A program made the position numbers and the translations under genes. Under the pieces are notes generated by a model that did not search any database, was not told the DNA's origin, and saw nothing but the letters and a program-made list of their open reading frames with translations. 64,000 bases of DNA from Escherichia coli. GTDB lineage: Bacteria; Pseudomonadota; Gammaproteobacteria; Enterobacterales; Enterobacteriaceae. Positions 24,556 through 49,943 of the stretch are shown piece by piece; the stretch's first letter is position 1, and each line of letters starts with the position of its first letter. The stretch lies in NCBI RefSeq assembly GCF_003018255.1, contig NZ_CP027440.1. The stretch is one strand, 5' to 3'.

Positions 24556-26064
<1,509 letters not shown>

Positions 26065-26099
26065 GGGACTTAGCCTGCGGCGGTTTTGTTTGGCTTCAG

Positions 26100-26345
26100 C
26101 AGCGGGTTGCGCTCCCTTAATGTGCCTCGCCATATAAATTGAATGGTGCAGGGAGCGCGCAGGGGGCGGCCAATCGCCGCCGCCCCCTGCACCCCCGGGC
26201 TCTGGCGAACAAAATCGCCGCTGCGCGGTACCTTCAGCTTATCCCCTTCGGCTACCGGGTCGGGCGCGAGGTAACGTCCTGTAAGACGCGCCCTCAGCCC
26301 ACATCCATGTGGGCTGCCCCGGCCTTCGGGGAACGCTTCAGCGAT
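26100..26345. repeat. GC-rich element with nested dyad symmetries (box C/RSA-like intergenic repeat or structured 3' UTR)
   Basis: gcgctccct...agggagcgc; perfect 12-bp inverted repeat gcagggggcggc / gccgccccctgc; cccacat/atgtggg; ccccggccttcgggg hairpin; no credible ORF. Confidence 0.5.
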
Positions 26346-26652
26346 TTTGACGCCACCAACACCCGAGCTGTTATTATGTTCCGGGCAAAAAGTTAGATTT
26401 GATAATCGCGGATGGACGAAATTGCTTGATACACCCGCTTATCAGTTTTACATGGAAGCTCTGATGCATTGAGTCTGGACAGTTTTGTCGGCTGGATAAG
26501 GCATTTACGCGGCATCTGGCAAGAACACATGGCTCGTTGTAAACAATCCCATCTTTGTACCTGGAATAATCGTTTATATCCCCTGGCATTACCTTTCTTT
26601 GTTTACATTCCAACATCATTTTATAAACATTCTGCTTGTATTTTTCTTTACC

Positions 26653-26671
26653 GTAATGATAATCGCTATCA
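26653..26671. promoter_or_regulatory. Fur box upstream of efeU
   Basis: gtaatgataatcgctatca matches GATAATGATAATCATTATC at 14 of 16 core positions, about 60 bp upstream of efeU. Confidence 0.7.
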
Positions 26672-26729
26672 CTGCGATTTACTTTTCTTTGCATAGATTG
26701 ACTCAGAAAAACGTTTAAGGGTGGGTGGC

Positions 26730-27560
26730 ATGTTTGTTCCGTTTCTCATTATGTTGCGCGAAGGACTTGAAGCCGCGCTGATTGTCAGTTTGATTGCCAG
26801 CTATCTTAAGCGTACCCAGCGAGGCCGATGGATTGGTGTGATGTGGATTGGCGTGCTGTTTGCCGCTGCGTTGTGCCTGGGCTTGGGTATCTTCATTAAC
26901 GAAACCACCGGCGAATTTCCGCAAAAAGAACAGGAACTGTTTGAAGGTATCGTGGCGGTGATCGCCGTGGTGATCCTTACCTGGATGGTTTTCTGGATGC
27001 GCAAAGTGTCGCGCAACGTCAAAGTGCAACTGGAACAGGCAGTCGATAGCGCATTGCAGCGTGGAAATCATCATGGCTGGGCGCTGGTGATGATGGTCTT
27101 TTTTGCCGTTGCAAGGGAAGGGCTGGAGTCGGTCTTTTTCCTGCTGGCGGCGTTTCAACAAGATGTCGGGATCTGGCCGCCGCTGGGTGCAATGCTCGGT
27201 CTTGCTACAGCCGTGGTGCTCGGCTTCCTGCTCTACTGGGGCGGTATTCGCCTCAATCTTGGTGCATTTTTTAAATGGACCAGCCTGTTTATTCTCTTCG
27301 TCGCCGCAGGGCTGGCGGCTGGTGCCATTCGCGCATTTCATGAAGCCGGATTGTGGAACCACTTTCAGGAAATCGCCTTCGATATGAGTGCGGTGCTCTC
27401 AACTCACTCGCTGTTTGGCACGCTGATGGAAGGGGTTTTTGGCTATCAGGAAGCGCCGAGCGTCAGCGAAGTCGCCGTCTGGTTTATTTATCTCATCCCG
27501 GCGCTGGTGGCATTTGCTCTGCCACCACGCGCAGGGGCGACAGCGTCTCGCTCCGCGTAA
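26730..27560 (+). CDS. efeU: ferrous iron permease EfeU (276 aa, FTR1/OFeT family), apparently intact
   Basis: Continuous ORF (track 26721..27560, ATG at 26730 MFVPFLIMLREGLE) containing both REGLE motifs; no frameshift visible. Confidence 0.88.
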   Translation: MFVPFLIMLREGLEAALIVSLIASYLKRTQRGRWIGVMWIGVLFAAALCLGLGIFINETTGEFPQKEQELFEGIVAVIAVVILTWMVFWMRKVSRNVKVQLEQAVDSALQRGNHHGWALVMMVFFAVAREGLESVFFLLAAFQQDVGIWPPLGAMLGLATAVVLGFLLYWGGIRLNLGAFFKWTSLFILFVAAGLAAGAIRAFHEAGLWNHFQEIAFDMSAVLSTHSLFGTLMEGVFGYQEAPSVSEVAVWFIYLIPALVAFALPPRAGATASRSA

Positions 27561-31900: not shown

Positions 31901-33226
31901 TTAACCTCTCAGAATCCCACGATCGGGACTTACCCAACGAGCGCGTTGTTTTTTAGGCATCAACATGACTCGTGTAAATGATACCAATGTCGTTGCCAGG
32001 CTTAGCATCCAGAAAATAACCGGAAACCAAATAATCCAGAAAAGCGATGAAGCCAGATTGTGCTCATAGCGATTCTCAATTACCAGACTGACAATAAATT
32101 GCAGTAAACATAACGTGCACAATAATATTCCGGCAGTATGTGTCGCTGCGATATGTGTCAATTCAATATTTAACGGTACACCTGCAAGTTGGACTGCGTA
32201 AATAATGAAACCGACCAGGCAGGTAAAGGCCCATATTGTCGTCAGGCAGTATTCAAAAAACAGTGGCCACATTCGAAAGTTTTCTTTTCGCCACAACCTT
32301 GTCATATTTTTGAGGAATACTTCTGCACCGCCCTGAGCCCAGCGCAGGCGCTGTTTCCACAGCCCTTTTAACGTTTCAGGCATTAATATCCAGCACAGCG
32401 CCCGTGGCTCGTAAAAAATCGTCCACTGATTCAACTGCAGCTTCCAGCTAATATCAATATCTTCGGTGATCATATCGTCACTCCAGTAACCCACTTCTGC
32501 CAGGGCGCTGCGACGAAATGCGGCAATAACACCGGAAACGGTAAATACATTTCCATAGATACGCTGGGTCCGCTTGATCAAACCAATAATTGAGGAATAC
32601 TCGCCAACCTGAATTTTACCCACTAGGGTAGAACGTGTGCGAATACGAGGATTACCGGTTACGGCACCCACACGTGGGTTGTACAACATCGGTTCCACAA
32701 TATATGCCGCTGCATCGCGGTCTAATAACGCGTCGCCATCAATGCACACCAGATATTCACTTTTCGCCGCGGCAGCTCCGGTTTTAAGCGCAATGGCTTT
32801 CCCCTGGTTTTGCGCCAGATGAATGACCCGCAGACGGGGAATTTGTGCAGCCATGCGATCCAGGATGGCACGGGTTTTGTCTGTTGAACCATCATTTACG
32901 GCAATAACTTCAATGTTCTCATAACGCTGTGCTAAAGCGGCATGTATGGTTTCCTCAACGTTTTTCTCCTCATTAAAACAGGGAATGATAATGGAGATAG
33001 ATGGATTATCTTTCAACTGGGGGGCTGGTGCGTTTTCTCCCCACGGCCAGTGGCGTTCACGATAGACCCAGAAATAGACGCCGCCAATAATCCACATAAT
33101 GGACATAAAAAACGGCCAGAAGAAAACGAACCTCATCATCAGTTCACCAGAGTGAAAGTACGCTACGCATAGAGGTATGCATAACACCAGACATAATATA
33201 AAAAACGATACGATGCGATTAATCAT
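31901..33226 (-). CDS. pgaC: poly-beta-1,6-N-acetylglucosamine synthase PgaC (441 aa, GT2)
   Basis: 441-aa ORF with GT2 motifs ([18 protein letters not shown]); overlaps pgaB stop. Confidence 0.95.
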
Positions 33227-35237
33227 TTTTCGGATACCAGGCTGTTGAAAACTCAGGACGAATAACGTCTATTTCAGGTTGGTTATGCAGAAAATTGTCG
33301 GGATAATAACCATAATTTTTCACTCCATTCAGTTGTAATAGGCTCATCCAGTGAGCGAGTTGTTGTGAAGAAATAGCCTGATGCTGACCATTTTTCTGCC
33401 AGTTTTGTGCCTGTAATTCTAAAATTGATTTGTCTTTAGCCTGCGGGATGCTTTTCATCTGATTGGTCAATTGTGTTAACCATTGATCAGCCGATTTTTC
33501 TGTGACGCCTTCCATATAAGGCATAGCCATAATAGCGGTCCAGTCATAGCTTTTTAGGAAATCAGCATAATTCTGTGCAAACCAAGCTTCACTTTCAGGT
33601 TGTATTACCGGAAGTGCAAAAATATTTCGTGCAGTTTTAACATGTGGACCACGAATGGCTTTTACGCGCGCACTAAGTTCTAAAGTGAAGTCAGTTAACG
33701 CACGACTTTTAAAGCGGGTCCACTGTTTGAATTGCTCCGGGTTTTGTCGAATTTCGCTCAGACTCCCGCTAAAGCCAGCTTGCTGATAAGCCGCGATAGC
33801 CGCTGCACTGGCATCTTCATAATCTGAAAGCAAAGCATCATCGTGGAACAATATGCCATCAAAAGCAGCATGTCCGGCAAGATCATCATATAACATGCCA
33901 ACTTGTGCTCTGACCCTGTCATCGAAAGGGGAGAGACGGCGGTATTGTTCAGGATGAATTTGTGCTTTTTTCTCCCCAGTTGGTAAGTATTTTACTCGCG
34001 TTAATGTGGGATCTAAATCCCAGCTTAATACCGGCATCCACGCATAGATGTTTACACCTGAGCGGGTACGCAATTGCCAGGCAACCCGACTAAAAATATC
34101 TGCTTTCATTGGTAGCAAACGATTTGGAAACCAGACCTCTTTAACCAGCCCATCACCATCGGGATCAGCAAATGCTTGTAAATACACGGTAGATATTTGC
34201 ATATCTTTTACCCTCTGAATTAGCACATCAATATTGCGATCCATTTGCTGGCGGTTTTCGTCATAAATGTAATCAAGATCGATATGCATTACCCGTTGTA
34301 GTGGTTTTTCCTGTACGGTAATAATTTGCTGGGCAAACTCTTTTAATGAGGGATTATTGGCGATTAATACTCGCGGAATGGAATCTAATTGCGACGCATT
34401 TGCCAAACCTGATTCAAGGGTGAAGAACATGTCATAACCGAGTTTTTTTAATTCCGCGATTGCTATGCCATTCGCTTCGCCATAAGGCCAAACAAAAACG
34501 TGTGGATTTACCTCAGCCTTTGTACGCAGGTATTCCGTCATTTTTACAGCATCCAGACGAATTCTTTCCCGGTATTCTGCTGCGGTTTCATACCGTGCGT
34601 GGTCAGTAAAATATGCACGATTTACATATACAGGCAATAAGCTGCCGGTGGCATTAGCCTGAATACCGTAGTGAGAATTCCATGTATGAGAAGCGACCTC
34701 AACGAGCCGGGAACGCGCAACTTCTCGCACTTGTTGCCACGTGGCAAAATATTCTCGACTGACCATCTCATCGCCAAATTTTACTTGTTCATCCGCTGGC
34801 GTATCGACCCAACTGCCGACGGGGGCCCATACAGCAGGCCACTGGAAGGCCTGAAGAATTGGGAAGACGCGGGTATAAAAACTCTGGTAGCCGTCATCAA
34901 AAGTCAGCACTACTGCTTTTTCCGGTAGCGGTTTTCCTCCTCGATGTGCTTCACGAATTTGAGCAATACTGACCGGTTGATAACCGTTCTCGCGCAGCCA
35001 GGCAAATTGTTCACGCAGTGCTGATGTCCGCACTGACATAAAACGCTGGTCGGCAGCTTCGTCTTCAACGTTATGCCATGAAATCGCCACAAAACCATTA
35101 TGCGGCCACGGTTGCTCGGCGAGTAAAGATTCGCGATCCTGTGGCGGTATAAATGATGTTCTTGACTGGCTAATGCACGCAGTGAGCATAATTATACTCA
35201 CCAGCATCAGGATATATTTATTTCCATTACGTAACAT
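33219..35237 (-). CDS. pgaB: PNAG N-deacetylase lipoprotein PgaB (672 aa)
   Basis: 672-aa ORF with lipobox (LTACIS) and polysaccharide deacetylase domain. Confidence 0.95.
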
Positions 35238-35245
35238 ATTTATCC

Positions 35246-37669
35246 TTAAAATCTGAATGTCATATCGAATTCAACGTATAAGTTGTGTTCTCTGTCACCG
35301 TCATAAGGTCGTTTTTCCCAGCGTAGCGTTGCGCCAGCATCAATCACGTCATTCCAGCTAATACGTTGCCCGTAGCCGAGTTGGGTGACGACATCCGTGC
35401 CATAATGTTTTTGCCAGGAGGCACCAACACCTGCGCTGAAGATTTGCTCCCAGCTATTTTCATAGCTTCGCCATAACAAATGACTTGCCTCAAATGCCGG
35501 AACAATATCGAACGTTTTTATAGGGTTGTAGTATGGAGTGTCGTGTTCTGTATTTTGTTCGTAATACAGATTGGGTAGGAAATCGACAATCAAATATGGT
35601 GAAGACCAGATGCGTTCCTGACCCTCAAGTGAGACTTCCTGACGCTGGTTACTGTCGGAAAAATCAGTGAAAGCCCAGGAGACACCGTACTTACGCCGCT
35701 CATTTTGATACCAGCGAACATAAGCCTGAGCACTGTTGCCTGTAACACCATTTTTCATTGCCCGTAATGGAACGCGGTGAGAGAGGCGTTCCAGTTGCGA
35801 ACCAATACGCCAGTTATCATTAAAATCATACCAGCCAGACAGGCGCGCGCCGGGTTTATGCTCATGATTGAAAACGCGTTCAGCGTACTCCGCCTCGAGC
35901 CAGATATTACGTGACCGCCACTCAACACCCGCCAGCCAGTCGCGAACAATCCCTTTTCCTTCGCTAAATTGTCCATCGGCATAACCGAATCCAGCAAAAC
36001 CGCGCCAGTTATCCTTCAGCGGTGGTGAATAAACGATGGTGGTTAAGTCGACATCATGTTTACCACTATCCGGGCCTTCGGCATCAATTCCTGTTGAACC
36101 AGCTATACGAAGCTCTGCAAGATTATGTACATCAACCGCACGTTTTAAACGTACAACGCCGGGATCTTGCGGTTCACGTTCGACAACATCGTGCGTTAAG
36201 ACAGCTGCCTGCTGCCATTCTTGTAACGTTAATGCTGTCCATGCTTGTTCAACCTCCAGATTAATATTACGTGGCTCGATCACTTCTGCTTTTTTTAATT
36301 CATTTTCTGCTGCACGAGGCCAACCGCGGGCTTGTAACACACTCGCGTAATCAATGCGCAGTCCCTGATTTCCTGGTGCGTTATAAGCAAGCTCTCTGGC
36401 TATCATTTCAGCCTGAGGAAGATCATTACTATATTTTGCTACGGTTGAGAGAAACGAATGCCCCTGTAACCAGGTATCATTCGGGATGCTCGTAGGCGTG
36501 CCCATTAACCGAAGGAAAGGCGGCGAAGTATTAATGGTATGTTGGGTGACAGTTAGCGCGCCGGGATAATTTTCACTCTCCAGGTGGCTGTAAAAGAGAT
36601 CCGCAAGTTCTTCATCGGATAAATCCGGGGCAATGGTCTCCTTGTGATAAAAGAGCTCTGTCATTATTGACTGTGCTTTTTTTGGCTGCTGTTCTTTGAG
36701 ATAAGCCGACGCAACCCAATATTGCGCCCAGGGCGGAATAATTTGCCTCGTATTTTTTAAACGCTGATAGTGAGAAATAACGTCTTTATAACGATCGCGA
36801 GTTAATAACGCGCCAAGATGATCAACCTGAATACGCTGGTACTGGGCAGTGCGGTCTGAGTTATCGTGCCACAGAATTTCTAATGCAGCGTATTGGGCGA
36901 GGGCGCGATCGGCAATGGCATAACGTTCACTTTCACTGCGCGTAGGCATAAACGACAGTCTGATCAGTTCGGCATGAATATCAGCGCGAATATCTGGCGT
37001 TAAATTGGCATCGTCAATCGCGGCAGCTAGTTGATTATTACGTAATGCCTGCACGTATTCTGTGGGATATTGTTGCTTAGATGCATTTTCAGGTAATGAC
37101 TCTGTCATCGCCCGTAATTCATCCTGATGACGCCCCGTCAGTTTATAGATATAGGCTTCTGCGAGTAAATTGGCTTTGTCCGGCGCTCCAGATTTAAGCT
37201 GCTTAAGTTTAACCAGCGCAGTATCATAGTGACCCGCATCTGCCAGGGTTAAAATTTGTCCCCGTTGATAATCCTTATTTTGCGGCTCCAGAGAGAGCGC
37301 CTTTTGCCACAGTGTAAGCGAGTTTTGCCATTGTTGCAGGTTACGATAAGCGACGGCGACAGCTGCATAACCACGCGCTGGTAATTGCTGATGACGGTAG
37401 CGGCTGTAAACGGTAATGACCTGTTTATCTTGCCCGGCCCATAAGGCAATTTGTAACCAGTCAGCAATTTGGTTATTACTGAGTGTTGATTTTTGTGCAA
37501 ACCATGACAAAGCTGGCTGAGTATTTCCTTTGCGAGCTTCAATAATCAATGCATCATAGGCGTTATTAACAGCACTCTTCGCCGCGGGACTCGCTGCTAA
37601 AAATGCGGCAGTAAGAAGTTTCAAAGCCCATTTGGTTTTCGGGCACCTTTTTCTGCTACTTGAATACAT
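35246..37669 (-). CDS. pgaA: PNAG outer-membrane export porin PgaA (807 aa, TPR + beta-barrel)
   Basis: 807-aa ORF MYSSSRKRCPKTKWALKLLTAAFLAASPAAKSA. Confidence 0.95.
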   Translation of the reverse strand: MYSSSRKRCPKTKWALKLLTAAFLAASPAAKSAVNNAYDALIIEARKGNTQPALSWFAQKSTLSNNQIADWLQIALWAGQDKQVITVYSRYRHQQLPARGYAAVAVAYRNLQQWQNSLTLWQKALSLEPQNKDYQRGQILTLADAGHYDTALVKLKQLKSGAPDKANLLAEAYIYKLTGRHQDELRAMTESLPENASKQQYPTEYVQALRNNQLAAAIDDANLTPDIRADIHAELIRLSFMPTRSESERYAIADRALAQYAALEILWHDNSDRTAQYQRIQVDHLGALLTRDRYKDVISHYQRLKNTRQIIPPWAQYWVASAYLKEQQPKKAQSIMTELFYHKETIAPDLSDEELADLFYSHLESENYPGALTVTQHTINTSPPFLRLMGTPTSIPNDTWLQGHSFLSTVAKYSNDLPQAEMIARELAYNAPGNQGLRIDYASVLQARGWPRAAENELKKAEVIEPRNINLEVEQAWTALTLQEWQQAAVLTHDVVEREPQDPGVVRLKRAVDVHNLAELRIAGSTGIDAEGPDSGKHDVDLTTIVYSPPLKDNWRGFAGFGYADGQFSEGKGIVRDWLAGVEWRSRNIWLEAEYAERVFNHEHKPGARLSGWYDFNDNWRIGSQLERLSHRVPLRAMKNGVTGNSAQAYVRWYQNERRKYGVSWAFTDFSDSNQRQEVSLEGQERIWSSPYLIVDFLPNLYYEQNTEHDTPYYNPIKTFDIVPAFEASHLLWRSYENSWEQIFSAGVGASWQKHYGTDVVTQLGYGQRISWNDVIDAGATLRWEKRPYDGDREHNLYVEFDMTFRF

Positions 37670-37905
37670 CCTGTATTACTCCATGTATTGCCAAAATCTC
37701 TCTCTATATCTAATTACAGGTAACTGAAAAGAAAGATATTTTTGCATCTCATAATCCGTTATTAAACGCGGAAGAGACACGTGAATTGTTGATGATGAGA
37801 AGAAGAAATGATGAGCAGATTGTCCATATAAAATCCTTTTCTCGCCCGAAAATCCATTCCAATGATGAGGATCTTCAGGAATACGGCATAAATCCCAATG
37901 CCTTT
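37670..37905 (-). promoter_or_regulatory. long pgaA 5' leader carrying multiple GGA motifs (CsrA-binding type)
   Basis: Six or more GGA triplets on the transcribed strand, including one over the SD (AGGAUG at the start codon). Confidence 0.6.
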
Positions 37906-38256
37906 TTCAAAATAAATTAGGATTAAAATAATTAAATCAGTAAATTCCGATGCATAATTTCGGATTTTTCGAAAGTCCTGATGAAAGGCAGCGCTACTGC
38001 ACTCACGAATTTAATTGTTATTCCTAATGTATCTATTAATTAATGCTTTATAAGGATTTTATTATAATCCTTTATAAGTATTTGCAAGCCTGCCTTGCAG
38101 CAAAAAATGTATAAAGCATTAAAGTGATAATAATTACATTCTGCAACTATCATCATCGGTATTGTTTGTGGGTGGATTTTCATATTGACAACAGTACAGT
38201 TCTTATATCTATTAATAATAAAAAGGGATCTACAACCTACAGGTTGGTGTAGCTTT

Positions 38257-39624
38257 ATGGAAAAAGACTATTTGGGAATTAGTAGTACTGTATTAGTGAG
38301 CTTATTGTTTGGGCTTGCATTGGTTTTGGTTAATAGTTGGTTCAATCAGCCAACCGTTGAGGAAGTTGTTCCACGATCAACCTATCTGATGGTTATGATT
38401 GCTTTATTTTTTATCGATACTGTTGCATTTATTTTTATGCAGTTGTATTTCATTTATGACCGTAGGCAATTTTCAAACTGTATACTTAGTTTGGCTTTTC
38501 TAAGTTGTTTGATTTACTTTATTAAAACCGTCATTATCATTCAGCAAATTATTGAGGGGCGTTTGACAAGCAGTGTTGTTCAAAATGACATTGCAATTTA
38601 TTATTTGTTTCGTCAGATGAGTTTGTGCGTATTAATATTTCTGGCATTGGTAAATAAAGTTAGTGAAAACACAAAACAGCGCAATTTGTTTTCCAAAAAA
38701 GTGACTTTGTGCATAACTTTGTTTTTTGTTCTTGGGGGGCCGATAGTTGCTCACATATTTTCTAGCCATTATGAGAGCTACGATTTACACATTGCCGAGT
38801 TAACCAATAAAAATGGTCAGGTGGTTTGGAAAGCCTCATATGTTACCATAATGATTTTCATGTGGTTAACCTTGCTTTCGGTTAATCTATACTTTAATGG
38901 TTTACGCTGTGATATCTGGAACGGGGTGTCGGTGATTGCTTTTTGTGCCGTGCTGTACAATATCTCTCTGTTATTTATGAGCAGGTATAGCGTGTCCATT
39001 TGGTATATTAGTCGCACTATTGAAGTAGTCAGTAAGTTAACCGTTTTGGTAATTTTTATGTGCCATATATTCAGTGCGCTACGAGTAACAAAGGACATTG
39101 CACATCGCGATCCCTTAACCAATATATTTAACAGAAATTATTTTTTTAATGAACTGACGGTTCAATCAGCATCGGCCAAAAAAAAACCTTATTGCGTCAT
39201 GATTATGGATATTGACCACTTCAAAAAAGTCAACGACACCTGGGGACATCCGGTTGGCGATCAAGTGATAAAGACAGTGGTGAATATCATTGGGAAAAGC
39301 ATACGACCAGATGACCTTTTAGCGCGCGTTGGCGGCGAAGAGTTTGGCGTCTTGCTGACGGAGATCGATACTGAATGTGCGAAAGCTTTAGCGGAAAGGA
39401 TTCGGGAAAATGTTGAACGTTTAACTGGCGATAATCCTGAATACGCCATACCACAAAAAGTGACAATTAGTATTGGCGCTGTTGTAACGCAGAAAAATGA
39501 GTTAAACCCTAAGGAGATCTATCAACTGGCTGATAACGCACTTTACGAGGCGAAAGAGACCGGGCGTAATAAGGTGGTAGTAAAAGAGGCAGAAATTCTT
39601 ATCAACCGCAAGGATGATGAATGA
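38257..39624 (+). CDS. dgcT: membrane-anchored diguanylate cyclase DgcT/YcdT (GGDEF domain)
   Basis: Track ORF trimmed to ATG at 38257 (MEKDYLGISSTVLVSLLFGLALVLV); multiple TM helices then GGDEF domain (RVGGEEFGVLL). Confidence 0.88.
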   Translation: MEKDYLGISSTVLVSLLFGLALVLVNSWFNQPTVEEVVPRSTYLMVMIALFFIDTVAFIFMQLYFIYDRRQFSNCILSLAFLSCLIYFIKTVIIIQQIIEGRLTSSVVQNDIAIYYLFRQMSLCVLIFLALVNKVSENTKQRNLFSKKVTLCITLFFVLGGPIVAHIFSSHYESYDLHIAELTNKNGQVVWKASYVTIMIFMWLTLLSVNLYFNGLRCDIWNGVSVIAFCAVLYNISLLFMSRYSVSIWYISRTIEVVSKLTVLVIFMCHIFSALRVTKDIAHRDPLTNIFNRNYFFNELTVQSASAKKKPYCVMIMDIDHFKKVNDTWGHPVGDQVIKTVVNIIGKSIRPDDLLARVGGEEFGVLLTEIDTECAKALAERIRENVERLTGDNPEYAIPQKVTISIGAVVTQKNELNPKEIYQLADNALYEAKETGRNKVVVKEAEILINRKDDE

Positions 39625-39685
39625 GTCTGTCGCTAGTTGTCGACCTCCGCCTGGGGCTTCTCATCCCCCAGTGTGTGAAATATAC

Positions 39686-39716
39686 GAAAAAAAGCTCGCA
39701 CTTTCGTACGAGCTCT
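39686..39716 (-). terminator. terminator downstream of serX (bidirectional hairpin shared with the dgcT 3' end)
   Basis: agctcg-cactttcgta-cgagct hairpin flanked by A7 on plus (T7 on minus). Confidence 0.7.
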
Positions 39717-39726
39717 TCTTTAAATA

Positions 39727-39814
39727 TGGCGGTGAGGGGGGGATTCGAACCCCCGATACGTTGCCGTATACACACTTTCCAGGCGTGCTCCTTCAGCCAC
39801 TCGGACACCTCACC
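39727..39814 (-). tRNA. serX: tRNA-Ser (anticodon GGA), 88 nt with long variable arm
   Basis: Minus strand reads GGTGAGGTGTCCGAGTGGCTGAAGGAGCACGCCTGGAAAGTGTGTATACGGCAACGTATCGGGGGTTCGAATCCCCCCCTCACCGCCA; 7-bp acceptor stem, GGA anticodon, CCA end. Confidence 0.93.
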
Positions 39815-39995
39815 AAATTGTCGTTCCTGTCTTGCTGGAACGGGCGCTAATTTAGGGAAATCATGACCTGAGGTCAACAAACTTTTTTAAAAAATCGCTC
39901 GATTATTCAAACTTCAATCAATATGCAGTTTTAATAAGCGAAATTTGCTTTTTTTGCCACCGACCACGGATTTGTTATGCTGCTGGTCTTTGTAG

Positions 39996-40985
<990 letters not shown>

Positions 40986-41039
40986 TAAAGCATCAGGTTT
41001 CCTGCTATCCTTGGCGGGAATTGAATACAGGAGAGAGTT

Positions 41040-41777
41040 ATGTATCCCGTCGACCTTCATATGCATACCGTTGCCAGCACGCATGCATATAGCACATTGA
41101 GTGATTACATTGCCCAGGCCAAACAAAAGGGCATTAAACTTTTTGCGATCACCGATCATGGCCCGGATATGGAAGATGCGCCGCATCACTGGCACTTCAT
41201 TAACATGCGTATCTGGCCGCGAGTGGTTGATGGGGTTGGGATCCTGCGCGGCATCGAAGCTAACATTAAAAATGTTGACGGTGAAATTGACTGCAGTGGC
41301 AAAATGTTTGATTCGCTGGATCTGATTATTGCCGGTTTTCATGAGCCGGTGTTTGCGCCGCATGACAAAGCGACCAATACGCAAGCGATGATCGCCACTA
41401 TCGCCAGCGGCAATGTGCATATAATAAGCCATCCCGGAAATCCGAAATATGAAATAGATGTTAAAGCCGTTGCTGAAGCAGCCGCGAAACATCAGGTGGC
41501 GCTGGAAATCAATAATTCCTCATTTTTACACTCACGTAAGGGCAGTGAAGACAACTGTCGGGCGGTAGCCGCAGCGGTACGTGACGCTGGAGGTTGGGTG
41601 GCATTAGGCTCGGATTCTCACACTGCGTTTACCATGGGGGAATTTGAAGAGTGTCTTAAAATCCTCGACGCGGTAGATTTTCCGCCAGAGCGCATTTTGA
41701 ATGTTTCTCCGCGCCGCTTACTTAACTTCCTTGAATCTCGCGGTATGGCACCGATTGCGGAATTTGCAGACCTTTAA
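41040..41777 (+). CDS. ycdX: PHP-family zinc phosphatase YcdX (245 aa)
   Basis: 245-aa [23 protein letters not shown] (PHP HxH motif). Confidence 0.92.
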
Positions 41778-41800
41778 TTACTAGTAATGGAAATATATTA

Positions 41801-42355
41801 ATGAATGAGTTTTCTATCCTCTGTCGTGTGCTGGGTTCGCTCTATTACCGCCAACCGCAAGATCCTTTACTGGTGCCGTTGTTTACCCTGATTCGTGAGG
41901 GGAAACTGGCTGCGAACTGGCCACTGGAGCAGGATGAGTTACTGACGCGTTTACAGAAAAGCTGTGATATGACGCAAGTCTCTGCCGATTACAATGCGTT
42001 GTTTATCGGCGATGAATGTGCTGTGCCGCCATATCGTAGCGCATGGGTTGAGGGCGCAACGGAAGCGGAAGTGCGCGCTTTTCTTTCCGAACGAGGGATG
42101 CCACTAGCGGATACGCCAGCCGATCACATCGGCACATTGCTGCTTGCGGCTTCCTGGCTGGAAGATCAGTCAACGGAAGATGAGAGCGAAGCACTGGAAA
42201 CACTGTTCAGTGAGTATCTGTTACCCTGGTGTGGTGCGTTCCTTGGCAAAGTGGAGGCCCATGCAACTACGCCTTTCTGGCGCACCATGGCACCGCTAAC
42301 CCGCGATGCTATTAATGCAATGTGGGACGAGCTGGAAGAAGATTCTGAAGAGTAA
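41801..42355 (+). CDS. ycdY: TorD/DmsD-family chaperone YcdY (184 aa)
   Basis: 184-aa ORF MNEFSILCRVLGSLYYRQPQDPLLVPLF. Confidence 0.9.
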   Translation: MNEFSILCRVLGSLYYRQPQDPLLVPLFTLIREGKLAANWPLEQDELLTRLQKSCDMTQVSADYNALFIGDECAVPPYRSAWVEGATEAEVRAFLSERGMPLADTPADHIGTLLLAASWLEDQSTEDESEALETLFSEYLLPWCGAFLGKVEAHATTPFWRTMAPLTRDAINAMWDELEEDSEE

Positions 42356-42456
42356 ATGTGATCTGCATCACTCATAACTGCAACGGGTAATTTGTTGTTG
42401 CATAAAATGTGTGCTCGATCTCATTCATGGCCGCGTTTTCTGCTATCATGCGCGGC

Positions 42457-42948
42457 ATGAACATACTTCTCTCTATTGCAATCACAACAGGCATTCTCTC
42501 CGGTATCTGGGGATGGGTGGCTGTTTCCCTGGGCTTACTAAGCTGGGCGGGCTTCCTGGGCTGTACGGCCTACTTTGCCTGCCCACAAGGTGGGCTGAAA
42601 GGGCTGGCGATCTCCGCTGCAACCCTGCTTAGTGGCGTGGTGTGGGCGATGGTCATTATTTACGGTAGTGCACTGGCACCACATCTGGAAATACTCGGTT
42701 ATGCCATAACCGGTATTGTCGCGTTTCTGATGTGTATCCAGGCCAAACAGCTGCTGCTTTCATTTGTTCCGGGGACGTTTATAGGCGCATGCGCGACGTT
42801 TGCCGGGCAGGGTGACTGGAAACTGGTGTTACCTTCGCTGGCGCTTGGACTGGTATTTGGTTACGCAATGAAAAACAGCGGCCTGTGGTTGGCGGCGCGT
42901 AGTGCAAAGACGGCTCACCGTGAGCAGCAAATCAAAAATAAAGCGTGA
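42457..42948 (+). CDS. ycdZ: inner membrane protein YcdZ (163 aa, DUF1097)
   Basis: Track ORF trimmed to ATG at 42457 (MNILLSIAITTGILSGIWGW); four predicted TM helices. Confidence 0.85.
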   Translation: MNILLSIAITTGILSGIWGWVAVSLGLLSWAGFLGCTAYFACPQGGLKGLAISAATLLSGVVWAMVIIYGSALAPHLEILGYAITGIVAFLMCIQAKQLLLSFVPGTFIGACATFAGQGDWKLVLPSLALGLVFGYAMKNSGLWLAARSAKTAHREQQIKNKA

Positions 42949-43011
42949 GGGGCACTCACGCTTTCGCTTAAACCGTAAAATGTCGGATGATAATTCCGGC
43001 ATTTTTATCTA

Positions 43012-43845
43012 TCAGGATTCCGGTGGAACCGACATATGGCGGTATTTCACTAGAATGTCATTCTGCCGTTCTGCTTTATTTTGCAAATCCCAAAGACCGC
43101 GGTCGATACCATCATTAATCAGGAAAATGACGCCTGTTTCGATAGCCGACATCAGGCACAGCATAACGGGTTCGTTCGAGGTGTAACCTACTTCCCCTTC
43201 CAGCAAGCGCTGGTAGTCAATAAAGCGGAAGACCCCCGCCTGAACTTCATAGGAAAGTATCGTCTTACTGGTGTTCACCGAGGAGAGGATCTCGCCGGTA
43301 CTCACATTGACGACGCGCAGGTTCACGGCAATCTGATCAAGCTGGTATTGCGTGTCTGCACCGATCCCAAAATATCTTGCCCCAACCCCGCCCGATTTAA
43401 CGTTGCTTTCATAACCGATAATTGAACCTTCAACCATGATATTTGCCGCCGTTAAAGATTGCAGCGGGATTCGGTTATTAATGGCAACCGTGCCGTTTTC
43501 TTGTGCCGCACGAATAATCTTGCGCTCGTTAAGCAGGTTTTGTAAGCCTTGGCGCTCCAGCGGTATAAACCAGCGAGAATCTTTCAATGCCGTGACCAGC
43601 ATTGCCGTGGCGCTTTGCGGAACAGCAGTGGAGAAGTTACTTGCCGGGTAGGGTTTAAATTGCCCGGTTTCGTCCTGAATGTTGTATACCGAAACAAAGA
43701 TCTTACCCGTCGGCGCTGGCAGATGGGTCAAATCTTTGTAGCTCTGAGCACGAGGCATTAATGTCGGTCTGGCGGCTTCTTTAGGCGGGGCGGTTAAGCA
43801 TCCGCTCAGTAACATGACGGCAACCAAAAGAAATAAGCGCTGCAT
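43012..43845 (-). CDS. csgG: curli secretion channel lipoprotein CsgG (277 aa)
   Basis: 277-aa ORF MQRLFLLVAVMLLSGCLTAPP (lipobox). Confidence 0.95.
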   Translation of the reverse strand: MQRLFLLVAVMLLSGCLTAPPKEAARPTLMPRAQSYKDLTHLPAPTGKIFVSVYNIQDETGQFKPYPASNFSTAVPQSATAMLVTALKDSRWFIPLERQGLQNLLNERKIIRAAQENGTVAINNRIPLQSLTAANIMVEGSIIGYESNVKSGGVGARYFGIGADTQYQLDQIAVNLRVVNVSTGEILSSVNTSKTILSYEVQAGVFRFIDYQRLLEGEVGYTSNEPVMLCLMSAIETGVIFLINDGIDRGLWDLQNKAERQNDILVKYRHMSVPPES

Positions 43846-43871
43846 GATTATTTTCCTTATGAAGCTGGGGC

Positions 43872-44288
43872 TTAAAAATCGGTTGAGTTATTTTGTAAAC
43901 CCGAAACCTGGATGGTCGAGGTTTGTCCGGTTTTACGATCTGTCACGTTCAACTGCAATTGACCATCGCGGTTAGCAATATCAACAATATAATCGTTGGT
44001 CACCATGCGGCCCGGTTTACCGGTATTAATATTCGACAGTAGCCCACCCAAAATTTGTGACTGGATGGCCTGAGTAAAGTTATCTAACGCCGAGGGCGTT
44101 TCAATACCAAAGTCATCGTTATAGCTCGGATCTTTATAAGAGTTTTGGGCCTGAGCGCTATTTAACAAAAAAGCGCCATTATTTGGGTTACCACCAAAGT
44201 TTGGATTACGGAACTGGAAAGTCATGGTTCCAGCCCAACTTAATGGCGAAATAAGCATGAGTAGAACTACTGCATGTTTGACACGCAT
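43872..44288 (-). CDS. csgF: curli assembly component CsgF (138 aa)
   Basis: 138-aa [36 protein letters not shown]. Confidence 0.95.
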
Positions 44289-44312
44289 TGCAGCCTCCGA
44301 ACAATTTATTAT

Positions 44313-44702
44313 TTAAAATTCATCATGCGCCAAATCGCCCGTACTTAATAACGCTTGGTTTATCTGGCGACGATTTAGTGCTTCTTCAGTTTGAATCAGT
44401 GCAAAGACGACAGTTTTCTCGAAGTCTCTTTTCAACGGAAATAAAAAAGTCTGGAAAATAACGTCCTGATTCACCGTTATTGTGATCCAGCTTCCCCATC
44501 GTGCACTGGGCCTTTCATTAATCGTTAAGTTACCCGTATAGTCACTTTCCCATTTATCACTAAAGGCTCGGTAAAAATCATGGCCAATAGATGAAACAGT
44601 ATGGTCAGTTAACAATCCCGGGACTTCTACCTCAACGGCGTGAAGATTCCCTGCGGCGAACAGAAATTCTGCCGCCACAATCCAGCGTAAATAACGTTTC
44701 AT
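44313..44702 (-). CDS. csgE: curli secretion specificity factor CsgE (129 aa)
   Basis: 129-aa [36 protein letters not shown]. Confidence 0.95.
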
Positions 44703-44706
44703 GGCT

Positions 44707-45357
<651 letters not shown>

Positions 45358-46110
45358 GATGAAACCCCGCTTTTTTTATTGATCGCACACCTGACAGCTG
45401 CCTCTAAAATAGAAGCACCAGAAGTACTGACAGATGTTGCACTGCTGTGTGTAGTAATAAATCAGCCCTAAATGGGTAAAATATAAAACTAATGGATTAC
45501 ATCTGATTTCAATCTAGCCATTACAAATCTTAAATCAAGTGTTAAACATGTAACTAAATGTAACTCGTTATATTAAAATGTTAATCTTAAGGTTTTATTA
45601 AGTTTAGAAATGATAGAAAAGTTGTACATTTGGTTTTTATTGCACAATTTTAAAAAATCATACAAATGGTGCTAACTTACTAATAATGCATATAAAAAAT
45701 ATTTCGGTGTAGTCCTTTCGTCATGTAAAACGTTCTTGTTTTTTCTCCACACCTCCGTGGACAATTTTTTACTGCAAAAAGACGAGGTTTGTCACGGCTT
45801 GTGCGCAAGACATATCGCAGCAATCAGCGACGGGCAAGAAGAATGATTGTCTGGTGATTTTTGATAGCGGAAAACGGAGATTTAAAAGAAAACAAAATAT
45901 TTTTTGCGTAGATAACAGCGTATTTACGTGAGTTTTAATACTTTGGTATGAACAAAAAAAGAAAAATACAACGCGCGGGTGAGTTATTAAAAATATTTCC
46001 GCAGACATACTTTCCATCGTAACGCAGCGTTAACAAAATACAGGTTGCGTTAACAACCAAGTTGAAATGATTTAATTTCTTAAATGTACGACCAGGTCCA
46101 GGGTGACAAC
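45358..46110. promoter_or_regulatory. 753-bp divergent csgD / csgBAC regulatory region
   Basis: Long AT-rich ORF-free intergenic region between divergently oriented csgD and csgB. Confidence 0.85.
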
Positions 46111-46566
46111 ATGAAAAACAAATTGTTATTTATGATGTTAACAATACTGGGTGCGCCTGGGATTGCAGCCGCAGCAGGTTATGATTTAGCTAATTCAGAA
46201 TATAACTTCGCGGTAAATGAATTGAGTAAGTCTTCATTTAATCAGGCAGCCATAATTGGTCAAGCTGGGACTAATAATAGTGCTCAGTTACGGCAGGGAG
46301 GCTCAAAACTTTTGGCGGTTGTTGCGCAAGAAGGTAGTAGCAACCGGGCAAAGATTGACCAGACAGGAGATTATAACCTTGCATATATTGATCAGGCGGG
46401 CAGTGCCAACGATGCCAGTATTTCGCAAGGTGCTTATGGTAATACTGCGATGATTATCCAGAAAGGTTCTGGTAATAAAGCAAATATTACACAGTATGGT
46501 ACTCAAAAAACGGCAATTGTAGTGCAGAGACAGTCGCAAATGGCTATTCGCGTGACACAACGTTAA
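46111..46566 (+). CDS. csgB: curli nucleator minor subunit CsgB (151 aa)
   Basis: Track ORF trimmed to ATG at 46111 (MKNKLLFMMLTILGAPGIAAAAGYDLANSEYNFAV). Confidence 0.93.
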   Translation: MKNKLLFMMLTILGAPGIAAAAGYDLANSEYNFAVNELSKSSFNQAAIIGQAGTNNSAQLRQGGSKLLAVVAQEGSSNRAKIDQTGDYNLAYIDQAGSANDASISQGAYGNTAMIIQKGSGNKANITQYGTQKTAIVVQRQSQMAIRVTQR

Positions 46567-46606
46567 TTTCCATTCGACTTTTAAATCAATCCGATGGGGG
46601 TTTTAC

Positions 46607-47062
46607 ATGAAACTTTTAAAAGTAGCAGCAATTGCAGCAATCGTATTCTCTGGTAGCGCTCTGGCAGGTGTTGTTCCTCAGTACGGCGGCGGCGGTAACC
46701 ACGGTGGTGGCGGTAATAATAGCGGCCCAAATTCAGAGCTGAACATTTACCAGTACGGTGGCGGTAACTCTGCTCTTGCTCTGCAAGCTGACGCCCGTAA
46801 CTCTGATCTGACCATTACCCAGCACGGCGGCGGTAACGGCGCAGATGTTGGCCAAGGTTCTGATGACAGCTCAATCGATCTGACTCAGCGTGGTTTCGGC
46901 AACAGCGCTACTCTTGATCAGTGGAATGGTAAAGATTCTACTATGACTGTTAAACAGTTCGGTGGTGGTAACGGTGCTGCTGTTGACCAGACTGCATCTA
47001 ACTCCAGCGTCAACGTCACTCAGGTTGGCTTTGGTAACAACGCGACCGCTCATCAGTACTAA
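46607..47062 (+). CDS. csgA: major curlin subunit CsgA (151 aa)
   Basis: 151-aa ORF with five imperfect amyloid repeats (S-x5-Q-x-G-x-G-N-x-A-x3-Q), e.g. SELNIYQYGGGNSALALQ and SDLTITQHGGGNGADVGQ. Confidence 0.96.
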   Translation: MKLLKVAAIAAIVFSGSALAGVVPQYGGGGNHGGGGNNSGPNSELNIYQYGGGNSALALQADARNSDLTITQHGGGNGADVGQGSDDSSIDLTQRGFGNSATLDQWNGKDSTMTVKQFGGGNGAAVDQTASNSSVNVTQVGFGNNATAHQY

Positions 47063-47084
47063 TACATCCTCTGTATTAAAGAAA

Positions 47085-47108
47085 CAGGGCGCAAGCCCTG
47101 TTTTTTTT
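47085..47108 (+). terminator. rho-independent terminator after csgA
   Basis: cagggcgcaagccctg hairpin followed by T8. Confidence 0.85.
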
Positions 47109-47120
47109 CGGGAGAAGAAT

Positions 47121-47504
<384 letters not shown>

Positions 47505-47505
47505 G

Positions 47506-47885
<380 letters not shown>

Positions 47886-47979
47886 GTTTCTGAACAACTC
47901 ACGTTGCTGAGCAGAAAAATGCGATTTAACCAAAAAGCCTGCTGTACACTTAAGAAACAAGAAGGTGTAAGGAGGCGTT

Positions 47980-48513
47980 ATGAAAACGCGTATTCATGTT
48001 GTGCAGGGTGATATTACCAAACTGGCCGTTGATGTGATTGTGAATGCGGCTAATCCGTCATTAATGGGAGGCGGCGGCGTCGATGGGGCCATTCATCGCG
48101 CAGCGGGTCCGGCCCTGCTGGATGCCTGTTTAAAAGTCAGGCAGCAGCAGGGCGATTGCCCTACGGGGCATGCCGTTATTACGCTTGCAGGCGATCTTCC
48201 CGCGAAAGCCGTAGTGCACACCGTCGGGCCAGTCTGGCGTGGTGGTGAACAAAACGAAGACCAGCTTTTGCAGGATGCCTATCTCAATAGCCTGCGACTG
48301 GTGGCAGCAAACAGCTATACGTCAGTGGCTTTTCCTGCAATCAGTACTGGAGTTTATGGTTACCCTCGTGCGGCAGCGGCTGAAATCGCAGTAAAAACCG
48401 TTTCAGAATTTATTACCCGTCACGCTTTACCCGAACAGGTATACTTTGTCTGTTATGATGAAGAAAACGCCCACCTCTACGAAAGACTCCTTACTCAACA
48501 AGGAGATGAATGA
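47980..48513 (+). CDS. ymdB: macrodomain O-acetyl-ADP-ribose deacetylase YmdB (177 aa)
   Basis: 177-aa [46 protein letters not shown] (macro domain). Confidence 0.93.
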
Positions 48514-48514
48514 T

Positions 48515-49936
48515 TTGCCCCGGCTGGCGAGTGCGGTGCTGCCACTGTGTTCGCAACATCCCGGTCAGTGTGGCATTTTTCCTCTGGAGAAAAGTCTGGA
48601 TGCGTTTGCCGCCCGGTATCGTCTGGCCGAAATGGCAGAGCATACGCTGGATGTTCAGTATTACATCTGGCAGGACGATATGTCGGGTCGGTTACTCTTT
48701 TCCGCCCTGTTAGCCGCAGCAAAGCGTGGCGTTCGCGTCCGTTTGTTGCTGGACGACAACAATACGCCCGGACTTGACGACATTTTACGCTTGCTTGACA
48801 GTCATCCCCGCATTGAAGTCCGGCTTTTTAATCCTTTCTCGTTTCGCTTGCTACGTCCGCTTGGTTATATCACCGACTTTTCCCGTCTCAATCGCCGTAT
48901 GCACAATAAAAGTTTCACTGTCGATGGCGTGGTGACGCTGGTAGGGGGGCGAAATATTGGTGATGCCTATTTTGGGGCAGGGGAAGAGCCACTTTTTTCG
49001 GATTTAGATGTCATGGCAATAGGACCAGTTGTAGAGGACGTTGCCGATGATTTCGCCCGCTACTGGTATTGCAAATCGGTTTCACCCCTACAGCAGGTGC
49101 TGGATGTCCCGGAAGGTGAAATGGCGGATCGCATCGAGTTACCAGCATCCTGGCACAACGATGCCATGACGCATCGTTATTTACGCAAAATGGAATCCAG
49201 CCCGTTTATAAATCATCTGGTTGATGGAACGTTGCCGCTTATCTGGGCGAAAACACGTTTATTAAGTGATGATCCGGCGAAAGGGGAAGGCAAGGCAAAA
49301 CGGCATTCACTGTTACCGCAGCGCCTGTTCGATATCATGGGCTCACCCAGTGAACGCATCGATATTATCTCTTCCTATTTTGTACCGACACGCGCAGGTG
49401 TGGCGCAACTCTTACGGATGGTGAGAAAAGGGGTAAAGATTGCGATCCTAACCAATTCTCTTGCCGCTAACGATGTTGCTGTCGTCCATGCCGGATACGC
49501 GCGCTGGCGCAAAAAATTGCTCCGCTATGGCGTGGAATTATATGAACTCAAGCCGACGCGTGAACAAAGTAGTACGTTACACGATCGCGGCATAACCGGT
49601 AATTCCGGTGCCAGCTTGCATGCTAAAACCTTTAGCATCGATGGTAAAACGGTGTTTATCGGCTCTTTCAATTTCGATCCGCGTTCAACATTGCTCAATA
49701 CTGAAATGGGCTTCGTGATAGAGAGCGAAACGCTGGCACAGTTAATTGATAAACGCTTTATTCAGAGCCAGTATGATGCGGCCTGGCAGCTCCGTCTGGA
49801 CAGGTGGGGACGGATCAACTGGGTTGATCGTCATGCAAAGAAAGAGATTATTCTCAAAAAAGAACCCGCCACCAGTTTCTGGAAGCGGGTTATGGTCAGA
49901 CTGGCGTCGATATTGCCCGTGGAATGGTTATTATAA
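48515..49936 (+). CDS. clsC: cardiolipin synthase C ClsC/YmdC (473 aa, PLD superfamily)
   Basis: TTG at 48515 one nt after ymdB stop gives 473 aa (MPRLASAVLPL); two HKD motifs (HNKSFTVDG, HAKTFSIDG); alternative ATG at 48506. Confidence 0.85.
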   Translation: MPRLASAVLPLCSQHPGQCGIFPLEKSLDAFAARYRLAEMAEHTLDVQYYIWQDDMSGRLLFSALLAAAKRGVRVRLLLDDNNTPGLDDILRLLDSHPRIEVRLFNPFSFRLLRPLGYITDFSRLNRRMHNKSFTVDGVVTLVGGRNIGDAYFGAGEEPLFSDLDVMAIGPVVEDVADDFARYWYCKSVSPLQQVLDVPEGEMADRIELPASWHNDAMTHRYLRKMESSPFINHLVDGTLPLIWAKTRLLSDDPAKGEGKAKRHSLLPQRLFDIMGSPSERIDIISSYFVPTRAGVAQLLRMVRKGVKIAILTNSLAANDVAVVHAGYARWRKKLLRYGVELYELKPTREQSSTLHDRGITGNSGASLHAKTFSIDGKTVFIGSFNFDPRSTLLNTEMGFVIESETLAQLIDKRFIQSQYDAAWQLRLDRWGRINWVDRHAKKEIILKKEPATSFWKRVMVRLASILPVEWLL

Positions 49937-49943
49937 GCGTGGC

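Follow-up and report, generated by a model that had tools for sequence, protein, structure and literature searches.

In the window studied here, a 64,000-nt stretch of Escherichia coli DNA to whose positions all coordinates refer, the GC-rich, palindromic block between putP and efeU is almost certainly a full-length copy of the intergenic repeat TRIP1, also known as the Replication Risk Sequence (RRS), at the site named TRIP1b. The overall explanation that we favour, and regard as likely, is that it is a dispensable extra TRIP1/RRS copy oriented in reverse to the two canonical ones. While the repeat, its site after putP and the mechanism of the family have already been described, we found only the deleted form of TRIP1b, and not the undeleted one, described in the TRIP1/RRS literature.

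Identity and limits of the element

The element is 89.5% identical both to TRIP1c (over 266 aligned bases) and to TRIP1a (over 258 aligned bases) of strain K-12. Of the complete E. coli genomes, 5,426 in all, 5,425 contain a megablast match to the block. The number of such places in a genome ranges from 1 to 8, with a median of 3; besides putP, K-12-type genomes have them at yohP-dusC and aqpZ-lysO. TRIP1 was catalogued by Rudd 1999 as a separate family and surveyed by Li et al. 2024 (PMC10888264), who place TRIP1a after aqpZ, TRIP1b 41 bp downstream from the stop of putP and upstream of ycdN/efeU, TRIP1c next to yohI/dusC and, in some strains, TRIP1d between alx and sstT and TRIP1e between copA and ybaP; these five fixed loci hold 99% of E. 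coli TRIP1 copies. The window element starts 42 nt past the putP stop (26064 to 26107), with efeU following from 26730, and thus occupies the canonical TRIP1b locus. Full-length TRIP1 has 62-65% G+C and a 'double-Y' branched fold of about -131 to -150 kcal/mol as RNA (PMC10888264); for the window element we obtain 64.9% G+C and a branched fold of -137.6 kcal/mol (minimum free energy, MFE) or -141.2 kcal/mol (ensemble). Finally, TRIP1a and TRIP1c are the two RRS (Pham et al., PMC10287960, PMC10592627), a 222-bp repeat that includes the G-quadruplex (G4) sequence GGGGGTGCAGGGGGCGGCGG (Pham et al., PMC10592627), and the window element, in addition to its homology, contains an exact match to this motif. 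The features that define the element are as follows.

26107-26368, + strand: core of the TRIP1/RRS repeat, a full-length TRIP1b allele, 262 bp, delimited by homology to other copies; the + strand is the C-rich 'RRS-C' strand
26196-26177, - strand: RRS G4 motif GGGGGTGCAGGGGGCGGCGG, exact match
26084-26106, + strand: weakly conserved left flank TTTTGTTTGGCTTCAGCAGCGGG (compare TTATATGTTGATTCATCATCTTG at TRIP1a), ~60-70% similarity in flank alignments
24556-26064, + strand: putP coding sequence, from the open reading frame (ORF) list and the RefSeq annotation of the 100%-identical NZ_CP029747.1; its stop lies 42 nt before the repeat core
26730-27560, + strand: efeU coding sequence, from the RefSeq annotation; intact, 276 aa, a pseudogene in K-12

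The G+C content of the element is 0.649, as compared to 0.501 for the whole window and 0.384 for 26369-26720; measured in 100-nt windows it is 0.64-0.71 over 26100-26349 and 0.29-0.48 downstream. A first-pass annotation of the same DNA had described a GC-rich block with nested dyads at 26100-26345. All four dyads that it named are present, and with a z-score of about -6 against shuffled sequences the observation is real and no chance feature. The block itself therefore stands, but not its limits: homology to other copies runs from 26107 to 26368, which leaves the original right end 23 bp short. The ~20 weakly conserved bases at 26084-26106 may also be part of the repeat, their membership being uncertain as judged by the flank alignments.

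The same annotation had taken the block for a possible member of a dispersed intergenic repeat family, with box C and RSA as candidates, and had proposed counting its copies by BLASTN. The count given above, a median of 3 places per genome, bears out the dispersed family and leads in substance to a known multi-copy repeat, although under another family name: TRIP1/RRS. Box C is ~56 bp long with ~33 copies in K-12, and RSA ~152 bp long with ~6 copies; neither agrees with a ~262-bp unit present in 3 copies in K-12, and it is by unit length and copy number only that the two candidates are set apart here. While box C, RSA and REP/BIME share with the element its GC-richness, palindromes, intergenic position and multiple copies, it is extremely unlikely to be any of them: besides the mismatch in length and copy number, the Rudd 1999 catalogue keeps TRIP1 apart as a family of its own, and the sole REP-like sequence nearby lies outside the element. 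This sequence, GGCTGGATAAGGCATTTACGCGGCATCTGGCAA at 26490-26526, is a degenerate REP-like palindrome with a partial match to naRNA4 (21 bits against a gathering score of 59.5).

Two ORFs overlap the block, 26139-26396 (+) and 26374-26694 (-), and although open frames of 85 and 106 codons do exist there, the chance that either is a real gene is negligible. Neither has a Pfam match, neither is annotated by the Prokaryotic Genome Annotation Pipeline (PGAP) in the identical record NZ_CP029747.1, and no reading frame is preserved in the element, since its aligned copies are distinguished by single-base, frame-breaking indels. Furthermore, K-12 loses 124 bp (not a multiple of 3) from ORF 26139-26396, and the region of ORF 26374-26694 is missing in O157 and in Kluyvera. 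We rejected the protein-coding gene on the grounds of the Pfam and PGAP results and the indels between copies. The earlier view of these ORFs as GC-driven artefacts is thus correct as far as 'artefact' goes, while 'GC-driven' does not suit 26374-26694, which consists mostly of AT-rich DNA.

Predicted fold and the strand on which it may act

As RNA, the + strand of the element is predicted to fold into two branched domains, and its MFE of -137.6 kcal/mol compares to -109.2 +/- 4.6 for shuffled sequences (z = -6.15, with 0 of 200 shuffles as good). Folded as DNA, the - strand reaches -83.9 kcal/mol against a shuffle mean of -58.1 (z = -6.6, again with 0 of 200 as good). The following structures, listed irrespective of strand, make up the fold.

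26109-26158: hairpin A, 9-bp perfect stem GCGCTCCCT/AGGGAGCGC (26109-26117 with 26150-26158, 100%) and a variable ~32-nt loop
26159-26190: hairpin B, GCAGGGGGCGGC/GCCGCCCCCTGC (26159-26170 with 26179-26190), a 12-bp perfect G+C stem with an 8-nt loop
26210-26349: domain 2, a branched region closed by the long-range helix 26210-26218 with 26341-26349 (MFE structure)
26262-26293: domain 2 hairpin GGGCGCG/CGCGCCC (MFE structure)
26295-26316: domain 2 hairpin CAGCCCACA/TGTGGGCTG, a 10-nt perfect dyad (26295-26304 with 26307-26316) with the core CCCACAT/ATGTGGG
26317-26331: hairpin E (CCCCG/CGGGG), CCCCGgccttCGGGG, identical to the first 15 nt of the right direct repeat described below

To follow the fold across the family, we aligned 29 copies from Escherichia, Kluyvera, Pseudocitrobacter, Enterobacter sp. 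ENT03 and one further Enterobacteriaceae genome. The consensus structure has 61 pairs, 12 of them with compensatory double changes, as compared to 5.6 +/- 0.9 in shuffled alignments (0 of 500 reach 12). A variant that, like the MFE structure of the window, has domain 2 closed by the long-range helix scores slightly better, with 13 of its 59 pairs compensatory; over both structures shuffles give 5.6-6.5 such pairs and slid controls 0-2. In the stem of hairpin A (alignment columns 24/62) C-G is replaced by U-A in 8 of the 29 copies. Covariation is seen at one pair in the long-range helix of domain 2, where A-U gives way to G-C in 7 copies, and at three pairs in hairpin D. The dusC allele of CFSAN061771 (L073 2511-2785) carries two compensatory pairs in hairpin B, GGGGGAGGA/TCCTCCCCC, which keep the stem and turn the G4 motif into GGGGGTGCAGGGGGAGGAGG. 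Because such compensatory changes extend across 29 copies from five genera, the fold of the family is under selection. The fold and covariation analysis proposed in the first-pass annotation thus yields both a strong fold (z = -6.15) and compensatory changes in 12-13 of the 59-61 pairs.

As to which strand folds, the comparison is split: by G-U counts it is the + strand that is preferred (114 cells, as compared to 12 for the - strand), whereas the alifold energy favours the - strand (-105.5 against -80.4 for the + strand). The variant structure fits either strand, since nearly all of its pairs are Watson-Crick.

This bears on whether the element works as RNA, with the C-rich strand being the 3' untranslated region (UTR) of putP or a small RNA (sRNA) and its hairpins serving to block 3' exonucleases, to end transcription or as a protein-binding site. 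The element has the same orientation as putP and begins 42 nt past its stop, with no terminator-like site in between; the RNA fold is strong (z = -6.15); the same strand follows a gene end at copA and, in K-12, at aqpZ and yohP; in Kluyvera and Pseudocitrobacter the TRIP1 module lies ~95 nt upstream of, and on the same strand as, a TwoAYGGAY motif that scores above the Rfam gathering score; and a non-coding RNA was proposed by Li et al. 2024 (PMC10888264). Nevertheless, the element matches no Rfam family, the best hits of a permissive scan of 25900-26900 being chance miRNA models (E = 0.4-6) far below their gathering scores, and it has no U-tract terminator. A promoter and terminator scan finds no promoter-like site in the element and no terminator-like site in 26065-26400, the only one in the region being at 26661-26679. 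Orientation relative to the neighbouring genes varies across loci and alleles: TRIP1d is antisense to alx/sstT, lysO (895 genomes) and dusC have alleles inverted in place, and TRIP1a lies downstream of the aqpZ terminator. Together with a better-supported structure that, being almost all Watson-Crick, fits either strand, these results fail to support the 3' UTR or sRNA that the first-pass annotation had considered, and we regard a role as RNA as unlikely.

The putP allele, replication direction and expected activity

The K-12 TRIP1b is a 146-bp partial repeat which, as compared to TRIP1a, lacks ~125 bp internally (Li et al. 2024, PMC10888264). It has the same flanks as the window element and shares with it locus-specific bases in the loop of hairpin A and at the right end, that is, on both sides of the break, which indicates that the window allele is the undeleted, ancestor-type form of the K-12 remnant. 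Three features describe the difference.

26189-26312, irrespective of strand: segment of 124 bp absent from K-12 TRIP1b, comprising the first G-run of the G4 motif and most of domain 2 (alignments)
26193-26210, + strand: left copy of a direct repeat, CCCCGGGCTCTGGCGAAC, imperfect (78% identity), spacing 124
26317-26334, + strand: right copy, CCCCGGCCTTCGGGGAAC, imperfect partner of 26193-26210

The K-12 deletion is bracketed by these direct repeats, and 22 bp of the K-12 sequence are covered by both BLAST pieces; as judged by the alignments, the K-12 form arose when the locus lost 124 bp between these imperfect repeats. The window keeps 26189-26312 and has both the complete G4 motif and domain 2, whereas K-12 TRIP1b lacks both and retains hairpin B. 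No G4 motif is found at the K-12 putP locus (L004) because the deletion takes the first G-run of GGGGGTGCAGGGGGCGGCGG.

We typed the locus across the 5,426 genomes with a 410-bp query including unique flanks, taking at least 80% coverage as full-length and a best match of at least 95% as a putP-locus allele of either kind. A full-length copy is present at putP in 945 genomes; alleles of either kind number 3,543 records, which leaves ~2,600 genomes with the K-12-type deletion. About 1 in 6 complete E. coli genomes thus carries an undeleted TRIP1b with all the features of an RRS, treated as absent in K-12-based work.

The G4 sequence GGGGGTGCAGGGGGCGGCGG is reported nowhere else in the K-12 genome than at the RRS (Pham et al., PMC10592627), and over the 64 kb of the window G4Hunter gives a single site an absolute score of 1.7 or more, namely 26172 (-1.84). 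According to the literature on the family, RRS blocks polymerases at any genomic position if the lagging-strand template carries the G4, and leaves gaps of ~0.7-2 kb that load SSB and RecA; deleting or inverting both RRS reshapes supercoiling. Since the C-rich strand folds as well, lagging-strand gaps still form in the reverse orientation in single-molecule assays in vitro, in ~66% of encounters and with a length of ~330 nt.

The window has the gene order of K-12, putA(-), putP(+), efeUOB(+), and the cumulative GC skew rises from 0.03 to 0.37 over the 64 kb. As judged by these two features, the fork would travel from putA to efeU, which would make the G4 (- strand) part of the leading-strand template and the C-rich + strand the lagging-strand template, the reverse of the two canonical RRS. 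The position also differs: the RRS pair flanks the Ter macrodomain at a distance of ~650 kb from dif on each side (Pham et al.), and TRIP1b of K-12 starts at 1,080,855, 165.8 kb inside TRIP1a (start at 915,016).

In the mechanism described in the literature, the family acts as DNA: once the fork has unwound the duplex, whichever strand becomes the lagging-strand template forms hairpins, and the G-rich strand also a G-quadruplex; the folded strand stops the lagging-strand polymerase and leaves a transient gap after replication. At putP it would be the C-rich + strand (RRS-C) that serves as lagging-strand template. Owing to this reverse configuration, weaker gap formation, or none, is to be expected: the putP copy would give lagging-strand gaps less often, and smaller ones, than the canonical RRS at lysO and dusC. 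Like the others, it could also be a substrate for homologous recombination between repeats, a role supported by the aqpZ-TRIP1-dusC junction of strain 2016C-3878 described below. We rate the chance that the putP copy folds and can stall lagging-strand synthesis as about even; it would allow the reverse orientation to be tested in a natural setting, away from the canonical positions.

Several observations weigh against the reading set out here. The K-12-type 124-bp deletion is found in ~48% (~2,600) of the complete genomes, and neither allele in ~35% (~1,900 of 5,426). TRIP1b of O157:H7 EDL933 is an AT-decayed remnant split by a ~2.2-kb insertion, and two further 'full-length' alleles, E5 and 2013C_3964, carry either an 11-bp deletion or point changes affecting hairpin B and the G4. 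In the 101-bp segment with hairpin B and the G4, no more than 348 records (at most 6% of genomes) reach 99% identity to the window, which argues against selection for function at the putP site. An engineered inverted RRS gave no RecA/SSB peak in vivo (Pham et al., PMC10592627), and gap formation at the putP copy may for this reason be negligible. Finally, the fork direction has been deduced from gene order and skew, and strain 2016C-3878, whose record NZ_CP029747.1 is 100% identical to the window, appears to carry a large rearrangement; the reciprocal yohP-TRIP1-lysO junction of that rearrangement, searched for with a K-12-derived chimeric query, was found in no genome at 80% coverage or more.

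An alternative is a neutral relic, a TRIP1 copy with no role at putP that is undecayed so far and whose inherited foldability goes unused, and we give this possibility a probability slightly below even. The many independent decay states at putP speak for it, as do the rarity of a near-identical hairpin/G4 segment and the viability of K-12 without a full-length putP copy. However, RRS is active at any position into which it is put, and an inverted copy can stand in for the native pair (Pham et al.), so that an intact copy cannot be assumed to be inert; moreover, the relic concerns selection and not biochemistry, and largely overlaps with the explanation that we favour, a dispensable, reverse-oriented RRS. 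The putP locus decays repeatedly across strains, and this copy is therefore probably a dispensable extra and not one of the essential pair; a selected function at this site seems improbable to us. The 'insertion remnant' of the first-pass annotation is an apt description of the truncated K-12 allele and of the O157 allele, but not of the intact copy in the window.

Two related observations concern the locus in other genomes. The insertion in EDL933 (L072 3050-5723) is AT-rich and carries a 447-aa hypothetical coding sequence on the opposite strand. The putP-efeU spacer of Kluyvera intermedia (L061 6525-6746) contains a partial TRIP1 in the opposite orientation, without the hairpin B/G4 segment.

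Rearrangements, origin and relation to known systems

The megablast count gives 5 TRIP1 places for 2016C-3878. At ~155 kb from putP, its gene order is aqpZ, a TRIP1 copy, dusC-yohJK-cdd (L080 9747-11396). This junction implies a terminus-spanning TRIP1a/TRIP1c rearrangement, a type that inverts a terminus-centred segment of about 1.3 Mb (Li et al., PMC10888264); since such an inversion is symmetric about dif, the fork direction over putP would be unchanged. An IS110-family transposase gene (WP_021521716.1) interrupts the junction TRIP1, its insertion point lying within the small hairpin GGTAACAT/CCCTGTAA. With the canonical pair recombined and the junction copy split, the intact, reverse-oriented putP copy might supply the required 'at least one RRS' in this strain.

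The canonical loci are themselves polymorphic in orientation. At lysO-aqpZ, 4,031 of the 5,426 genomes have the K-12 orientation and 895 match a TRIP1 cassette inverted in place between the same flanking genes. At dusC one orientation is found in K-12 and two other Escherichia genomes, and the other in CFSAN061771, E69 and E. whittamii; these are whole-cassette replacements with poorly conserved cassette edges. The polymorphism bears on the claim that RRS orientation and position are conserved. At alx-sstT (L082 2047-2444) K-12 has, in place of TRIP1d, a different palindromic repeat of the CCCTCTCCC...GGGAGAGGG...GGGGTGAGGG type, which we take to be box C, and at copA-ybaP it has ybaQ in place of TRIP1e. 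Both spacers behave as replaceable cassettes.

Beyond E. coli, an exact scan for the G4 motif in one genome per species, in which the remaining matches were due to chance in GC-rich taxa or to contaminant contigs, located the element in further Escherichia (E. whittamii and two other species), in five Kluyvera species (2-7 matches each, the highest-count genomes having many at contig ends), in two Pseudocitrobacter species, in Enterobacter sp. ENT03 (7 matches) and in one further Enterobacteriaceae genome (3 matches). In Kluyvera, Pseudocitrobacter and ENT03 the repeat unit is 570-650 bp long: the TRIP1 module is followed, after a variable spacer, by a right module of ~266 bp. The right module matches TwoAYGGAY (RF01731) in 4 copies, at 47-49 bits against a gathering score of 43 and on the same strand as the C-rich TRIP1, and its hairpins show compensatory changes. 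This link in sister genera hints that RRS began within an RNA-encoding or mobile element.

TRIP1 could accordingly be the left module of a larger non-autonomous mobile element, of which the putP copy would be one insertion or its remnant; we consider this possible, though doubtful. In its favour are the 5-7 or more copies per genome, many at contig ends, in Kluyvera species and ENT03, the 570-650 bp repeat unit of these genomes, the occurrence of both orientations at the same intergenic sites, the 1-8 places occupied in E. coli genomes and the replacement of other sequence by TRIP1 as a cassette at alx-sstT and copA-ybaP. On the other hand, loci compared with and without TRIP1 reveal no terminal inverted repeats, target-site duplication or clean empty site, there is no associated transposase, and 99% of E. 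coli copies reside in five fixed loci. No match was obtained in phage records, and the matches in the plasmid collection are chromosome-like records that cover the TRIP1 module only. A mobile past, at the same doubtful level, concerns origin and is compatible with a DNA-folding mechanism. TRIP1/RRS may be no purpose-built replication device but the left module of a structured, multi-copy element of 570-650 bp. If true, this composite origin and the in-place flips would challenge the view of a conserved position and a conserved G4-on-lagging orientation. That both hold at once, with the putP copy a working third RRS in 2016C-3878 and TRIP1/RRS the surviving left module of a larger element, we deem a long shot.

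Two features of the window lie away from the repeat. In the divergent control region between putA and putP, PGAP calls a 69-aa hypothetical protein (WP_000979516.1, 24188-24397), probably spuriously. A stretch of ~20 kb at ~32000-52000 has a G+C content of 0.44-0.46, as compared to 0.50-0.55 elsewhere in the window, and may be horizontally acquired DNA.

The closest relatives of the putP copy are RRS-lysO (TRIP1a) and RRS-dusC (TRIP1c) of K-12, with which it shares the same hairpins, an identical 20-nt G4 motif, the same G+C content and the same predicted fold. It differs from both in that its G4 strand would be the leading-strand and not the lagging-strand template, and in that there is no sign of conservation at the putP site; as compared to RRS-lysO, it lies ~166 kb inside, towards the terminus (Li et al., K-12 coordinates). 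The composite of TRIP1 and TwoAYGGAY in the sister genera resembles the window element over its left 260 bp (82-91% identity, with the exact G4 motif), whereas the window and nearly all E. coli lack its right module: nhmmer gave only insignificant, biased matches in the window and 15 E. coli loci, and blastn 3 weak partial matches in the 5,426 genomes. REP/BIME sequences are likewise intergenic, GC-rich and palindromic, often lie just 3' of genes and, in the case of BIME-2, have been proposed as topological barriers, but REP units are ~35 bp long and present in hundreds of copies, and the TRIP1 core contains no REP consensus. Finally, in the papers cited here the pilE G4 of Neisseria gonorrhoeae is the only other bacterial sequence named as a programmed gap trigger acting through a G-quadruplex; it has no sequence relationship to TRIP1/RRS, and is a short sequence tied to pilin antigenic variation, as opposed to a multi-hairpin repeat of 260 bp.

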